Below, one piece after another: positions 36,190-42,354 of a stretch of DNA of 64,000 nt. This DNA comes from a phage. The notes beneath the pieces are model-generated. The model was given only the letters and a program-made list of their open reading frames with translations. It did no database searches and had not been told where the DNA came from. The stretch lies in the sequence record OZ346219.1. One strand, 5' to 3'. The position numbers and the translations under genes are program-made. Every line of letters begins with the position of its first letter. The stretch's first letter is position 1.

Positions 36190-36408
36190 TTATTTATATC
36201 GCTTTCTATCGCGACGTTTTTGGTCTTCTTCCTTGATAGAGTTAAATGCATCAAAAAGACACATGACACTAATAATAAACATAACCGTATTTTCTACGAT
36301 ATCCCACGGCTTCGCATCAGTACAGATCCCCCAAACGGTAAGAAATGCAAATAAGGCAGAAGAGATCACAAGAATGATACTTGCTAAGATATAAAAAGTC
36401 ATTTTCAT
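36190..36408 (-). CDS. Small hydrophobic membrane protein
   Basis: 72 aa. Confidence 0.4.
   Translation of the reverse strand: MKMTFYILASIILVISSALFAFLTVWGICTDAKPWDIVENTVMFIISVMCLFDAFNSIKEEDQKRRDRKRYK
36191..36198 (-). promoter_or_regulatory. T4-type late promoter TATAAATA (minus strand)
   Basis: Plus strand tatttata at 36191-36198, overlapping stop of ORF 36190..36408. Confidence 0.45.
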
Positions 36409-36599
36409 GGTTTTACCTCAATTCTTCGATATTCATCACACATCCACGCAGTAAGCAAGAATCCCAGCACATAAGAAACAAAATACGTTAATGCTTCTTC
36501 TGGTTTCGTGCTATGTATCATCAGTAAACCAGCGAGAACGGTCTTAACAATTACATTTAAAATAATTAGCCACGCAAATAATTTCATCGTTTGCCCCAT
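36405..36599 (-). CDS. Small hydrophobic membrane protein
   Basis: 64 aa. Confidence 0.4.
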   Translation of the reverse strand: MGQTMKLFAWLIILNVIVKTVLAGLLMIHSTKPEEALTYFVSYVLGFLLTAWMCDEYRRIEVKP

Positions 36600-36823
36600 T
36601 TCGGTCGAGTCTTTTCAAACTTATACATTCCGTAACAATCTCGAATCATCCACGTAACAAGAGCACCAGTCAACACAGACAATACACAGAAGAAGTAAAA
36701 CGGTCCGGTTGCATTATCAACATGAGCAAGCCAGGTAAAGAAAACACATGCTAAGAATGTAAAGAACATCATAAAACACAAGAAAGCAAAATATTTTATG
36801 CTACTCATAGCGCCACCATACAA
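36584..36823 (-). CDS. Small hydrophobic membrane protein
   Basis: 79 aa. Confidence 0.4.
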   Translation of the reverse strand: MYGGAMSSIKYFAFLCFMMFFTFLACVFFTWLAHVDNATGPFYFFCVLSVLTGALVTWMIRDCYGMYKFEKTRPKWGKR

Positions 36824-36911
36824 CAGATCATAAGAAAACCAAACGCAATAAGAATTGCATCAAATTTAGTGAACTCAGGTCCACCTATCAACATCATTCG
36901 TTCTATTTCGT

Positions 36912-37154
36912 TCATAGCGTACAAAGCCATTTAAAAGCACCACATAAAGCGATCAAAAGACTAGGTATAAACGAGATTACAACAAGACCAAAAAAATCAT
37001 CTAAGGTAACACCGGAATAGCTACCTACTGTAACAACACCGATCATCAGACACAGAAAGAAAACAAATGCAAGCATAAACAAAGTATTGCTAAACAGTTT
37101 AGTGATCATTAGACACCCCACGACGATCAATTTCAAAAACTTTTTTATCATCAA
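36912..37154 (-). CDS. Small hydrophobic membrane protein
   Basis: 80 aa. Confidence 0.4.
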   Translation of the reverse strand: MMIKKFLKLIVVGCLMITKLFSNTLFMLAFVFFLCLMIGVVTVGSYSGVTLDDFFGLVVISFIPSLLIALCGAFKWLCTL

Positions 37155-37302
37155 CGAAGCATGTCACAACTGCCTCGTTGACTTCCGCAAATTGTTGTGT
37201 TACCCACTTAAGGTCAGAGCGAAACAATGTTCTATTAATAACAAATGTTTTACCGCTCTTATCCTTACCCATAAATTTTGCTTTAACCATATCAAATTCC
37301 AT
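37099..37302 (-). CDS. Hypothetical small protein
   Basis: 67-aa ORF, start uncertain. Confidence 0.35.
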   Translation of the reverse strand: MEFDMVKAKFMGKDKSGKTFVINRTLFRSDLKWVTQQFAEVNEAVVTCFVDDKKVFEIDRRGVSNDH

Positions 37303-37311
37303 ATTATCACC

Positions 37312-37470
37312 TTATTTGCTAATCGCTAAACCCAATCCGAAGAGAGCACCCGATGCTACAGTATACCCGAAAGTTTCAAAGGCAGTAAAGATATCTAAGC
37401 CACCAGCTAACAGAGTTGCAGTAAACAGAGTACCAGCTACGAACATAAAAGTTTTACCGATAAATTTCAT
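37312..37470 (-). CDS. Micro-protein (52 aa), hydrophobic
   Basis: Hand-translated MKFIGKTFMFVAGTLFTATLLAGGLDIFTAFETFGYTVASGALFGLGLAISK after GGAGAATCAAA leader; not in track. Confidence 0.4.
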   Translation of the reverse strand: MKFIGKTFMFVAGTLFTATLLAGGLDIFTAFETFGYTVASGALFGLGLAISK

Positions 37471-37536: not shown

Positions 37537-37911
37537 TTAAGAATATTTTACTTCGTCTACAATGTCTTTCATGACATTGATTTCCATTCCGGTCAGAACA
37601 CGTTGGAACATGTGCTGAACATACGCTTTCAGATATTCATTTGATGGCTTGCTATCAAAAGTCTTTTTAGTGTAGTAGTCATCACCGAAAGCTACTGTAA
37701 TTACATTTTCGTCGTCGTTCCAAGCGATATAAGCAAATTTGCCGTTATCCCAGAAGCGAGCACTAATTGCTACTTTTGTTGAATCGAATCCTACTTCGCT
37801 GTGAGATTCAAGAACTACTTGCGTGCCAGTTTCTTTATGAATGTAGTAGCGGGATACTAAGTCAAAGTTACGGGTGTAGTGACATTCGAATTTATCTTTA
37901 AACAACATCAT
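37537..37911 (-). CDS. Hypothetical protein
   Basis: 124-aa ORF after early promoter. Confidence 0.45.
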   Translation of the reverse strand: MMLFKDKFECHYTRNFDLVSRYYIHKETGTQVVLESHSEVGFDSTKVAISARFWDNGKFAYIAWNDDENVITVAFGDDYYTKKTFDSKPSNEYLKAYVQHMFQRVLTGMEINVMKDIVDEVKYS

Positions 37912-37983: not shown

Positions 37984-38015
37984 AAAAACAAAAAACCCCG
38001 AAAAATTTTTCGGGG
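37984..38015 (-). terminator. Rho-independent terminator downstream of acb1-like gene
   Basis: CCCCGAAAAAUUUUUCGGGG hairpin + U-run. Confidence 0.6.
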
Positions 38016-38022
38016 TATAGAA

Positions 38023-38493
38023 TTACAGTTTGGTCGTCCACTCCAGGTCTAGATCTTCGACATACTCATGAGATCGGACAATCTCTAAATCGAACTCTAG
38101 GTCAGTACCAAATTTACGCGCACCAACATCATAAGAAAGCGTGATATGCGGTACATATTCAGGATAATCCCACGTCGCACCTAAAGCAGTGCCTATATCG
38201 TGTCTGAATTGCATGTAGTCGCTTTCAAATGCCAACACAAGCGCATTAGTACCGGATTGAGTTTCAAACACTTTAAGATGGCATAGAGAGCCTAAAAACT
38301 TTTCACCCTCTTCTGGTATAAACGGAACATAGACACGAGAATATAAGATAGTGCTATGCAGTTTATCACGAGGAACGGCATTAGGCAGATCGTAGAACTC
38401 CTGCAATTTTTCAATGCGGTCTAGTGTATCCTCAGTGAATTTAACCGCCGCATATGTACCTTTAACGGATTCTCTAAACGGGGTCATAATCAA
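38023..38493 (-). CDS. acb1: 2H phosphoesterase, Acb1-like (T4 57B position; cyclic-oligonucleotide phosphodiesterase candidate)
   Basis: Two H-x-T/S motifs (HSTIL, HITLS) about 90 aa apart; 156 aa; immediately downstream of gp57A-like gene as in T4. Confidence 0.6.
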   Translation of the reverse strand: MIMTPFRESVKGTYAAVKFTEDTLDRIEKLQEFYDLPNAVPRDKLHSTILYSRVYVPFIPEEGEKFLGSLCHLKVFETQSGTNALVLAFESDYMQFRHDIGTALGATWDYPEYVPHITLSYDVGARKFGTDLEFDLEIVRSHEYVEDLDLEWTTKL

Positions 38494-38747
38494 GCCTCCG
38501 TGATCAGTTCTACTTCCTCTTCCGCTGCGTCGTCTTTAGGGAGAAGTGCTTTCACTTCTTCGACAATAGCATCAAGGGAAACAGTCCCGTTTTCGTCTGG
38601 CTGAATACCCAGAATGCGTACCAGTTCCATCAATACACACTCACGATCTTTCAGTTGGCCTTCTAAGAATGCGGCCTTTTCTTGAGTGTCAAACAGACGT
38701 ACTTTCAGGACATTAATCATTTGTTCATGCTGATTGGACATATTCAC
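38490..38747 (-). CDS. 57A: gp57A-like tail-fibre assembly chaperone (small coiled-coil protein)
   Basis: 85 aa, acidic coiled-coil, position immediately downstream of gene 1. Confidence 0.5.
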   Translation of the reverse strand: MNMSNQHEQMINVLKVRLFDTQEKAAFLEGQLKDRECVLMELVRILGIQPDENGTVSLDAIVEEVKALLPKDDAAEEEVELITEA

Positions 38748-38773: not shown

Positions 38774-39430
38774 TTAAATGTTCGCGAGAATCGCGCTTTC
38801 AAATTCTTCTAATGTACCATTATTTATGATAATGGTTTCACCGTCAATAGGCAAAATTCCTTTTTCGGTGGAGTGAGTAGATACAATACCAGTATCACGC
38901 TGAATATGCAACACCTTAGCACCCATAGCACGCATGAGAGCAATTTCAATAGGCTGACGCACATCAACCACTACAAAATACCCTTCTTCATTTTTGCGCT
39001 TCATAAACTCATCCACAAAGAGATTACACCAATAAAGCGGATTGATCAAGTTAACCATTATATCAGTACCGAGAGTGGTTAACATGAGACGAATAGACCA
39101 GACGTTATTATGTTTTTCTCCGATCTCATTAACAACCTTGTAAATCTCAGCCAGACGATCACAAGTAAAGGAACTACCGCCATACTTCGAATCTAGCATA
39201 AGCAGACACTGAATAAACCACTTATGCGCGGTATATGTATCAATACCTAGATCGGCTTCTCTGTCACGCCCTAACCCATCAAAGTCAAGATAAGTCAGAC
39301 CTAAGTCTGGTTGACATTCGCATAAGATTTCTTTGATCGGTGCTGCCAGTTGATAACTATGTCCATCAATTATTAACGCGGCAGTGTCTTTTCCTACTCG
39401 CTTTTTACCACAAAGTGCAATCAGTTTCAT
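38774..39430 (-). CDS. 1: Deoxynucleoside monophosphate kinase gp1
   Basis: MKLIALCGKKRVGKDT... and conserved blocks match T4 gp1 (MKLIFLSGVKRSGKDT...). Confidence 0.85.
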   Translation of the reverse strand: MKLIALCGKKRVGKDTAALIIDGHSYQLAAPIKEILCECQPDLGLTYLDFDGLGRDREADLGIDTYTAHKWFIQCLLMLDSKYGGSSFTCDRLAEIYKVVNEIGEKHNNVWSIRLMLTTLGTDIMVNLINPLYWCNLFVDEFMKRKNEEGYFVVVDVRQPIEIALMRAMGAKVLHIQRDTGIVSTHSTEKGILPIDGETIIINNGTLEEFESAILANI

Positions 39431-39445
39431 TATATAAGCCTCTTA

Positions 39446-40036
39446 TTACTTTCTAAAAGCAGGGTGCATAGCTTTAATACCTTCCACCCGCTGACGATCC
39501 GCCGCCTGAATTGCTGGGCGAGGAACGATCAGTTGACCATCACGTTCAATGCTCATTGTTTTAAAGGGAAGAATTGCAGTACACACCAGAGATTCATGCA
39601 TATCATCGGTGTATGTTAACTCAAGTTCCCCCAATTGTGAACACCAACAACCATAAAAGTTAAAAGTGCACACAATGTTACGTCGTTCGTTGTCCATCAT
39701 GTGAACTTGAACGGCTTCCGGCATTGAATCCTTCCACGCAGTGGAGTTACCGTTATTGTAGTCTACTATAGAAAGCATCCATGTGTAAAGGTTTAGATAG
39801 CTTTCCAAATGCTCATCGACAATAAACCGGACTACCAACGGGTCAAACTCCACATGACTAGACGGATAATCAGCGACCGCCAAACCATATTGACCAGCAA
39901 CTTGCTTAGTCGGTGGAATGGTTATAGCAGGAAGTGTAACACCTTGAGCATTTAAAGTAAAGCCTTTTGTTAGCTGTCCATCTGGAATATTGATCTGCCA
40001 GTTGCTAGGGTTAGCATAGTTAAAGAGATTAGACAT
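39446..40036 (-). CDS. Probable gp3 tail tube terminator / sheath stabiliser (by synteny)
   Basis: 196-aa ORF immediately upstream of gene 1; sequence not independently recognised. Confidence 0.4.
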   Translation of the reverse strand: MSNLFNYANPSNWQINIPDGQLTKGFTLNAQGVTLPAITIPPTKQVAGQYGLAVADYPSSHVEFDPLVVRFIVDEHLESYLNLYTWMLSIVDYNNGNSTAWKDSMPEAVQVHMMDNERRNIVCTFNFYGCWCSQLGELELTYTDDMHESLVCTAILPFKTMSIERDGQLIVPRPAIQAADRQRVEGIKAMHPAFRK

Positions 40037-40225: not shown

Positions 40226-40480
40226 ATGACAGAAGACATTTTGTTAAAACTCTATGATCGTCTGGATAACGAATTAGCAACATTGCGGGGTGAAGTTCTC
40301 TATTTGTCTAAATGCAATACAGATCTGCTTAAGCAGATTGCAGAAAGGGATGATCAAATAAAATCCCTTTCAGGTGCATTACGTGATCGCGACAAGGCAT
40401 TAGAGATTTTACAGCGTGTTACCAATAAGGAAGAATTAAAAGACTTCTTACATGGTTATGCTCATGCTATCGATCTATAA
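40226..40480 (+). CDS. Hypothetical coiled-coil protein
   Basis: 84-aa plus-strand ORF with SD; followed by bidirectional terminator. Confidence 0.45.
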   Translation: MTEDILLKLYDRLDNELATLRGEVLYLSKCNTDLLKQIAERDDQIKSLSGALRDRDKALEILQRVTNKEELKDFLHGYAHAIDL

Positions 40481-40481
40481 T

Positions 40482-40513
40482 AAAAAAGCCCGTCAATGAC
40501 GGGCTTAATTTTT
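40482..40513. terminator. Bidirectional rho-independent terminator
   Basis: GCCCGTCAATGACGGGC hairpin flanked by A-run and T-run. Confidence 0.6.
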
Positions 40514-41540
40514 AATATGTATCAGCTAATTTAATTATGTTATCAAGTTCCGTGATTGGTAAAGTTTCTGTGTATCCATCTTTCAACATGGATTTATCAA
40601 CAACGCCACAATGATAAGTTCTCTTTATTTCCTTTTCAAGTTCCCACGGAATCCAGCCATCAACACTTTGTTTGACGTAAACAAGTTTGTGAACAAACTT
40701 AGATTTCTGCATATGTTGTTTCATTCTGGTTTCCGGTAATTCATTGGTTACACCAAACTTTATAAATTTATCATCTAACGTCTGGATATAAAAATATCCC
40801 ATCTCAGATGGACGATAGCCAGAAGAACTACATTTCGGACACCCTTTAGCATTTCTGTTGAACGTACAATATCTTACGGAAAATTCTGCATCATGTTTTG
40901 TACATTTAAGTTTTATCCATGAATTTGCAGTACCTATCCATTCACCATCGACACCTATATATTCATACCCTAACTTTTTACATTTATCTTCTATTCTAGA
41001 TAGTGCATCTTCCACGGGAACGACATATTCCATCTTAAATTGTTCAGCCGCGCATTTCTTACAACCACATGTACCATGATTTTTAAAATCAAAGAACTTT
41101 GTATTCTTCCAAATATGGTCATGTTTCTTGCATCTAAGAATCATCTTAGTAATTTGTGATTTCCACCCACCAACAAATCCCAAAAATTCATAATCAAGAT
41201 CTTTACATTTTTCTTCAATGAATTTGGTTGCTTCCTCTTCTGTCATAACTCCCCTACATTGAGGGCAACCAACAATAACCTTTTTAGCATAGAAACTATT
41301 ACTGGAAACATCATAGACAGATCCATGCTTATTGCATTGGATAACAGATCTAGTCAATTTTCCTTTCCATTCTCCAGAAAATCCTAAAAATGTATGGTCG
41401 ACAAGTTTACACCTCTCAATAACTTTGTCCGCAAATTCTCTAGGAGATTTTGTTACTTTGTTTACTCTGTATTCTATTTCTTCCGGTTGACGAAGATCAT
41501 AAACGTGGGGATTGCTCCCCACGGAATTAATATTAAGCAT
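40512..41540 (-). CDS. Three-fold Cys/His zinc-ribbon repeat protein with C-terminal GIY-YIG-like (T5orf172-type) domain; homing-endonuclease-like
   Basis: Three about 50-aa repeats (FLGFxGxW...CxKH...CPxC) and C-terminal GYFYIQ...KFGVTN...R...H; ATG overlaps stop of upstream gene (ATGCTTAA). Confidence 0.5.
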   Translation of the reverse strand: MLNINSVGSNPHVYDLRQPEEIEYRVNKVTKSPREFADKVIERCKLVDHTFLGFSGEWKGKLTRSVIQCNKHGSVYDVSSNSFYAKKVIVGCPQCRGVMTEEEATKFIEEKCKDLDYEFLGFVGGWKSQITKMILRCKKHDHIWKNTKFFDFKNHGTCGCKKCAAEQFKMEYVVPVEDALSRIEDKCKKLGYEYIGVDGEWIGTANSWIKLKCTKHDAEFSVRYCTFNRNAKGCPKCSSSGYRPSEMGYFYIQTLDDKFIKFGVTNELPETRMKQHMQKSKFVHKLVYVKQSVDGWIPWELEKEIKRTYHCGVVDKSMLKDGYTETLPITELDNIIKLADTY

Positions 41541-42354
41541 CCTTCCACACCTTCCTTGCATCATAGTTTTTACCTTTAGAAACAAATTTATATGTGTTAA
41601 GGTAGATAATATTGCTCCAGTCTTTCGGGCTAATCTCAACAAGTTTTGTTTTAATGTGTCCAGGTAGATATGCTTTGATCATGTGATCACTTCCACGCAT
41701 ACCTTTTACATCGCTCCATTTGATTTTTAAGCGTGTTTTATTGCTCAAGGTAGGAGTAGATGCATATTGCTTTAAAAGTGCCTCTAAAAACTGCTGACGG
41801 GCTTTAGGCGTTACATAGTGTAAGTTAAGACCCAGCATTACAGTATTACCCGCCTTTGTCTTAGAATCACCCAGACAAATGATCAGCGGGAAAACATCCC
41901 AATATGGCAAAGTGTCTTTATACTTCGCATCATACATAAAGGTATAGATTCGCCCTACTTGCGGTTTTACAATCTGGTGTCCCTTTATTCCCGCTTTTAT
42001 TGTTTTAGTAAACCACTCCTGTGATTTTTCTTTAGGACGACTCTTTGATACAGCACGCATAGACGCACGAAAATCATTAATCATCATCATTGCGCGTTGC
42101 TGCTTATTGAGACCCTTTGCTCCTTTCCCTTTTAGTTTTTCAACTTCTATTGCTGTTTTAATTTCGCTGGCATAACGAGACATACTTTTAGTGAAAGTCG
42201 CATAGGCTATTCCCTTAGAATCTGCAAATGCTTTAGCTGTCATACCTTTGGCTTTTGCTTTCGCAAATTCTACACCCAATTCGACCCACTGTTTAGACTT
42301 TCGTTTTTGGGGAGACGGCTTTTCGTCTTCTGTGATTATTTCAAATACGCTCAT
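41533..42354 (-). CDS. Probable gp2-like DNA end-protector protein (by size and synteny)
   Basis: 273 aa, located between gp4 and gp3 as gene 2 in T4; sequence not independently recognised. Confidence 0.35.
   Translation of the reverse strand: MSVFEIITEDEKPSPQKRKSKQWVELGVEFAKAKAKGMTAKAFADSKGIAYATFTKSMSRYASEIKTAIEVEKLKGKGAKGLNKQQRAMMMINDFRASMRAVSKSRPKEKSQEWFTKTIKAGIKGHQIVKPQVGRIYTFMYDAKYKDTLPYWDVFPLIICLGDSKTKAGNTVMLGLNLHYVTPKARQQFLEALLKQYASTPTLSNKTRLKIKWSDVKGMRGSDHMIKAYLPGHIKTKLVEISPKDWSNIIYLNTYKFVSKGKNYDARKVWKDA

Follow-up and report, generated by a model that had tools for sequence, protein, structure and literature searches.

The 154-amino-acid (aa) protein encoded on the minus strand at positions 38023–38487 of the 64-kb window (the whole stretch of phage DNA analysed here, 64,000 nt) is very likely the orthologue, in Krischvirus (RB49/JSE-like T4-type phages), of Acb1 (gp57B) of phage T4, a metal-independent 2H phosphodiesterase with an anti-CBASS role assigned by homology. 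All features that can be tested in silico place the predicted protein in the Acb1 family. This identity, which a first-pass annotation of the sequence had put forward for a candidate anti-CBASS nuclease, is correct but already known, since the exact protein has been deposited as gp57B, the family is represented in Pfam and by a crystal structure, and the T4 orthologue founded the class of anti-CBASS nucleases.

The function of the family is well documented in the work of Hobbs et al. (2022, PMC9117128), in which T4 gene 57B was identified by activity-guided fractionation as Acb1, a 3'3'-cGAMP-degrading enzyme. The same study solved the structure of Acb1 from Erwinia phage FBB1 (PDB 7T26 for the apo form and 7T27 with 3'3'-cGAMP) and reported in vitro cleavage of both 3'3'-cGAMP and cAAA by T4 Acb1 and nine homologues, i.e. 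all ten proteins assayed. Cleavage by the family is metal-independent and is directed at cyclic di- and trinucleotides that contain adenosine (3'3'-cGAMP, cUA, cAAA), not at cGG or cA4, and a T4 Δacb1 mutant was more sensitive to CBASS (PMC9117128). A lysate screen of 57 phages in that study included an RB49-type phage, vB_EcoM-G2494, and the text on the screen states that T4-related phages degrade CBASS signals (PMC9117128). In the searchable literature, we found no paper naming Acb1 together with Krischvirus or RB49.

Gene call and organization of the 3-1-57A-57B cluster

The gene is the last of a cluster of four on the minus strand, with the following features:

38023–38487, minus strand: acb1 (57B orthologue) coding sequence, 154 aa plus stop, from the open reading frame (ORF) list, Pfam, PDB and the match to phage JSE
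38495–38499, minus strand: Shine-Dalgarno sequence GGAGG, 7 nt 5' of the acb1 ATG and within the last codons of 57A, read from the sequence
38490–38747, minus strand: gp57A tail-fibre assembly chaperone (PF17594 GP57, 28 bits against a cut-off of 27; phrog_1002 "tail fiber chaperone", E = 1e-25)
38774–39430, minus strand: gene 1, dNMP kinase (PF21448 DNMK, E = 4.5e-68; JSE annotation)
39446–40036, minus strand: gene 3, tail completion and sheath stabiliser protein, first of the cluster (PF06841, phrog_45 and JSE annotation)
37985–38016, minus strand: intrinsic terminator after acb1, ACCCCGAAA/AATT/TTTCGGGGT followed by UUUUUUGUUUU, from a terminator scan and RNA folding

The gene had been described as an ORF of 156 aa at 38023–38493. 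This frame is real, lies on the minus strand and opens at an in-frame TTG at 38493; the part that probably does not stand is the start, for the ATG at 38487–38485, two codons inside the listed ORF, is the more likely initiation codon and would give a protein of 154 aa. We took this ATG as the start of acb1 because the near-identical phage JSE annotates exactly the same coding sequence of 465 nt and 154 aa. The ATG is found 2 nt past the stop codon of 57A.

The first-pass annotation had placed the gene immediately downstream of a gp57A-like gene and upstream of a terminator, in the position of T4 57B, and each of these statements was borne out: the assignment of 57A is supported by both PF17594 and phrog_1002, the gene follows 57A in T4 as well as in JSE, and a terminator is present 7 nt past the acb1 stop codon. 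Its stem-loop (38016–37995, minus strand) consists of a 9-bp G+C-rich stem and a 4-nt loop (−13.6 kcal/mol, z = −3.1), and the U-run extends to approximately position 37985. The order 3-1-57A-57B is common to the window, T4, JSE, Acinetobacter phage Morttis, Aeromonas phage AsFcp_4, Citrobacter phage Miller and Klebsiella phage Earwig; a position next to 57A is typical of the Acb1 family in Straboviridae, while not strictly defining it. A search for the T4 late-promoter consensus TATAAATA gave four matches in the 64 kb, no more than expected by chance, and none of them was upstream of 3-1-57A-57B. In the T4 record, tRNA genes in a cluster and two small RNAs, C and D, lie within about 1.5–3 kb downstream of 57B. 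ARAGORN detected no tRNA genes over the 64-kb window, so a T4-like tRNA cluster is not nearby, and a search of the same window against Rfam at gathering thresholds returned no RNA family.

Assignment to the Acb1 family

Similarity of the protein to Acb1 was found to be strong and to extend over the full length. Neither of the two findings that the first-pass annotation had named as refuting it, absence of similarity to Acb1 or LigT-like proteins and loss of the catalytic histidines on alignment, was obtained. A Pfam search returned PF23474 (Anti-CBASS protein Acb1) at 174.3 bits (cut-off 27; E = 1.5e-51), with the match spanning positions 1–143 of the 144 in the model and residues 11–154 of the protein. 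When all PDB chains were searched with phmmer, the sole significant match was 7T26/7T27, Acb1 of Erwinia phage FBB1 (E = 1.9e-43), covering residues 12–155 of the 156-aa ORF. Global alignment gave 53.5% identity to FBB1 Acb1 over 142 aligned residues and 47.7% to T4 gp57B/Acb1 (NP_049750.1), and the protein is 100% identical to YP_002922201.1 of Escherichia phage JSE, the product of a gene named "57B". A search of the protein against NCBIfam returned no matching model. A single-sequence AlphaFold2 model was too poor to judge the fold (mean pLDDT 37.4, pTM 0.36); since this model is unusable, the fold assignment rests on identity to a solved structure, and a 2H phosphoesterase fold that is compact and bears a lid at the C terminus is implied by the 53.5% identity to PDB 7T26.

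Not all database labels agree with this assignment. In PHROGs the protein belongs to phrog_755 (E = 1e-54), which is labelled "RNA ligase", and RefSeq gives the same name to 57B of both JSE and T4. In addition, two LigT-type Pfam models were matched below their cut-offs, 2_5_RNA_ligase2 (PF13563) at 19.4 bits against 27 and LigT_PEase (PF02834) at 14 bits against 23.3. These observations would fit a LigT-like 2H enzyme that acts on RNA ends, as a 2',3'-cyclic phosphodiesterase or a 2'-5' RNA ligase, and serves in RNA or tRNA repair instead of signal degradation. We consider such an enzyme highly unlikely. The LigT-type matches are partial and reach no further than the surroundings of the second HxT motif, in contrast to the end-to-end match of the Acb1 model; the T4 orthologue was discovered through its activity on 3'3'-cGAMP (PMC9117128); and the stacking and adenine-contacting residues that are specific to cyclic-oligonucleotide binding are retained. 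"RNA ligase" is a legacy label based on the fold, and we found no assay behind the name. With both models below the gathering threshold, membership of the protein in the LigT-like 2'-5' RNA ligase/cyclic phosphodiesterase families (PF13563, PF02834) was rejected.

Active-site and ligand-binding residues

The two H-x-T/S motifs on which the first-pass annotation had based its proposal are both present, HSTIL at residues 44–48 and HITLS at residues 114–118 (numbering of the 154-aa protein):

38350–38358, minus strand: first catalytic motif H44-S45-T46 (HST), aligned with T4 H44/T46 and invariant in an alignment of eight sequences
38140–38148, minus strand: second catalytic motif H114-I115-T116 (HIT), aligned with T4 H113/T115 and invariant in the same alignment

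As a signature of the 2H fold, the pair is less telling than had been assumed, for 13.6% of composition-preserving shuffles of the protein contained two or more H-x-[TS] motifs. A pair of such motifs could by itself arise by chance, and it is homology that decides the case. The catalytic tetrad of T4 Acb1 (HxT/HxT) is made up of H44, T46, H113 and T115 (PMC9117128), and in the alignment with T4 Acb1 both catalytic histidines and both threonines are retained at exactly the matching positions. T4 Acb1 further possesses the stacking aromatic residues Y12, W74, F107 and W147, a contact between E141 and the N6 of adenine, and a C-terminal lid (PMC9117128). The nine functional residues map by alignment to Y12, H44, T46, F74, Y108, H114, T116, E144 and W150 of the window protein, and seven of the nine (Y12, H44, T46, H114, T116, E144 and W150) are identical to those of T4. 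In the two others, F74 replaces T4 W74 and Y108 replaces T4 F107, and both are the residues found in the crystallised and active FBB1 enzyme. Y12, H44, T46, H114, T116 and E144 were invariant across the eight homologues aligned, which came from phages of Escherichia, Erwinia, Acinetobacter, Aeromonas, Citrobacter, Klebsiella and Pseudomonas. The sole structural difference from both T4 and FBB1 Acb1 is a two-residue insertion at approximately F132-D133, shortly before the lid.

The changes at two stacking positions are genuine, as are the inserted residues ahead of the lid, and they raise the question of whether the protein might be a true Acb1 with a substrate range shifted relative to that of T4, or one whose main target is not CBASS but the cA3 of type III CRISPR or of other cA3 systems. 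Type III CRISPR is rare in E. coli, which counts against it as the target. Acb1 does degrade cA3 in vitro, and Panoptes guard systems sense that it is present (PMC13577387). However, F74 and Y108 are also the residues of FBB1 Acb1, which in the crystal binds 3'3'-cGAMP and hydrolyses it, and cleavage of 3'3'-cGAMP and cAAA was a property of every one of the ten Acb1 proteins assayed (PMC9117128). Given that both aromatic substitutions are shared with FBB1 Acb1, we regard a shifted range or a non-CBASS target as very unlikely, and a conventional Acb1 is the preferred reading of the window protein.

Distribution and conservation

A 2.1-kb region around acb1 was 95–99% identical to 59 phage records (97.8–98.7% among the 20 matches listed), and the named records were those of Krischvirus, including RB49, JSE, kaaroe, KFS-EC and others. 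With the protein as the query, tblastn located homologues in 1476 phage records, mostly of Straboviridae at 30–55% identity; 52 of the records matched the protein at 99% identity or more, and six others did so at 95–99%. Set against the 95–99% identity of the surrounding DNA across the 59 records, this pattern is consistent with purifying selection. A copy that had decayed or lost its activity, a pseudoenzyme retained solely because of its place in the operon, would not be expected to look like this, nor to have an intact, full-length frame in which every catalytic and ligand-binding residue is retained, a good ribosome-binding site and tight coupling to 57A. The probability that the gene is such a relic is, in our view, close to nil.

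Some of the more distant homologues differ in architecture. In Pseudomonas phage psageK9 (NC_074661.1), the Acb1-like domain (at approximately 1351–1851) constitutes the C-terminal part of a 600-aa protein (locus 52–1854) encoded just after the terminase gene, and both HxT motifs are retained (LHVTIAYSR and PHITFTY). This fusion is unlike the stand-alone acb1 gene of Straboviridae. The homologues of Citrobacter phage Miller (locus 1483–2106) and Klebsiella phage Earwig (locus 1459–2082) are 207 aa in length, of which about 50 aa form an extension at the C terminus, and both have a Lys aligned with the lid Trp (W147 in T4 and W150 in the window protein). The Lys and the extension could point to a change in the lid or in the range of substrates.

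Proposed mechanism

We infer the catalysis, substrate range and anti-CBASS effect of the window protein by analogy with T4 and FBB1 Acb1, on which the following mechanism is modelled (PMC9117128). The acb1 gene would be co-transcribed and translationally coupled with 57A within the 3-1-57A-57B cluster, with transcription ending at the intrinsic terminator. The ligands would be cyclic di- and trinucleotides containing at least one adenosine, and these would be clamped in a U-shaped pocket by the aromatic residues Y12, F74, Y108 and W150 together with the contact of E144 to the adenine N6. The C-terminal lid would then close over the bound ligand. In the third step, catalysed by the H44-x-T46/H114-x-T116 tetrad, the 2'-OH of the strained adenosine would attack the adjacent 3'-5' phosphodiester, giving a linear 3'-phosphate by way of a 2',3'-cyclic phosphate. 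The CBASS messengers 3'3'-cGAMP, cUA, cAAA and cAAG would in this manner be destroyed before activation of the effectors, which would stay unactivated because Acb1 would remove the cyclic-nucleotide signals, and the phage would escape abortive infection.

Neighbouring genes

Downstream of the acb1 terminator, the following features were noted:

37978–37950, minus strand: near-consensus sigma-70-type (early-type) promoter, TTGACA-17-CATAAT, directly after the acb1 terminator and serving the 124-aa gene
37537–37911, minus strand: uncharacterised 124-aa protein (phrog_15253, E = 6e-87), occupying the place of T4 ipI
37099–37302, minus strand: Dmd homologue, 67 aa (PF17587, 57.7 bits, E = 1.5e-15), approximately 0.7 kb downstream of acb1

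In T4, Dmd serves as the antitoxin to the toxins RnlA and LsoA. Since two counter-defence genes, acb1 and dmd, are found about 0.7 kb apart, the region looks like a small anti-defence neighbourhood. The sole Pfam match of the 124-aa protein was below threshold (T4 Gp30.7, 17.4 bits), and this protein is a candidate early or anti-defence factor of uncharacterised function. Six small hydrophobic ORFs of 41–80 aa, several of them with overlapping stop and start codons, were observed on the minus strand at 36190–37154 and 37312–37470; none had a significant Pfam match, and the JSE annotation lists them as hypothetical proteins. A bolder proposal would make the whole stretch past acb1 a Krischvirus-specific anti-defence island, comprising the phrog_15253 protein of 124 aa, with a strong early-type promoter of its own, as a new counter-defence factor, a 52-aa membrane peptide, dmd and the small hydrophobic ORFs, and/or would hold that the two-residue insertion causes the substrate range of Krischvirus Acb1 to differ from that of T4. 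We consider this unlikely.

At the other end of the cluster, one further gene sets the window apart from T4:

40512–41642, minus strand: 376-aa ORF with three CapR-homology-domain repeats (PF21817, E = 1.1e-14), annotated as "endonuclease" in JSE

The 376-aa ORF is situated between gene 3 and gene 2. Because T4 has no gene between 3 and 2, this ORF is probably a mobile insertion of the homing-endonuclease type. It is adjoined by an 84-aa coiled-coil ORF at 40226–40480 on the opposite strand.

Implications for annotation and phage behaviour

The names given to the orthologues in GenBank, RefSeq and PHROGs are "RNA ligase", "putative RNA 2',3'-cyclic phosphodiesterase", "gp57B conserved hypothetical protein" and "hypothetical protein", and none of the orthologue records among the matches listed uses "Acb1" as the product name. 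Database annotation hence lags behind the characterisation of Acb1 in 2022; dozens of Krischvirus records still label the gene "RNA ligase" or "hypothetical protein", which is outdated and should read Acb1. RB49-like coliphages are frequent candidates for phage therapy; the analysis confirms that they carry an intact Acb1, and adds little that is new. These phages should resist CBASS signalling that employs adenosine-containing cyclic di- and trinucleotides, and they should be vulnerable to guard systems of the Panoptes type, which are fired by the depletion of such signals (PMC13577387). The practical value of the finding is limited to re-annotation and to the prediction of phage behaviour, namely CBASS resistance and Panoptes sensitivity.

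Comparison with known systems

The enzymes of the LigT/2H superfamily (PF13563, PF02834) share with the window protein the two H-x-T/S motifs and, as predicted from homology, the superfamily fold and a metal-independent acid-base chemistry that proceeds via a 2',3'-cyclic phosphate. They act, however, on RNA ends or 2',3'-cyclic nucleotides and not on cyclic oligonucleotide immune signals, and the similarity to them is below threshold.

T4 Acb1 (NP_049750.1) has the same place at the end of 3-1-57A-57B, and its 47.7% identity extends over the full length of the protein. The HxT/HxT tetrad, Y12, the adenine-contacting Glu and the lid Trp are shared, and the lengths are similar (152 aa in T4 and 154 aa in the window). 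The two proteins differ by conservative aromatic changes (W74 and F107 in T4, F74 and Y108 in the window) and by the two extra residues before the lid of the latter. The 57A stop and 57B start codons overlap by 4 nt in T4, whereas they are 2 nt apart in the window, and coupling to 57A is tight in both. The next gene downstream in T4 is ipI, which has an anti-restriction function, whereas in the window it is the uncharacterised 124-aa gene, and no tRNA cluster is situated downstream.

FBB1 Acb1 is the closest relative with a solved structure (53.5% identity). It comes from a phage of another host genus, and of the pair only the window protein contains the insertion in the F132-D133 region. F74 and Y108 are shared between the two, and the C-terminal lid is closely similar, with ELDLEWSDK against DLDLEWTTKL.
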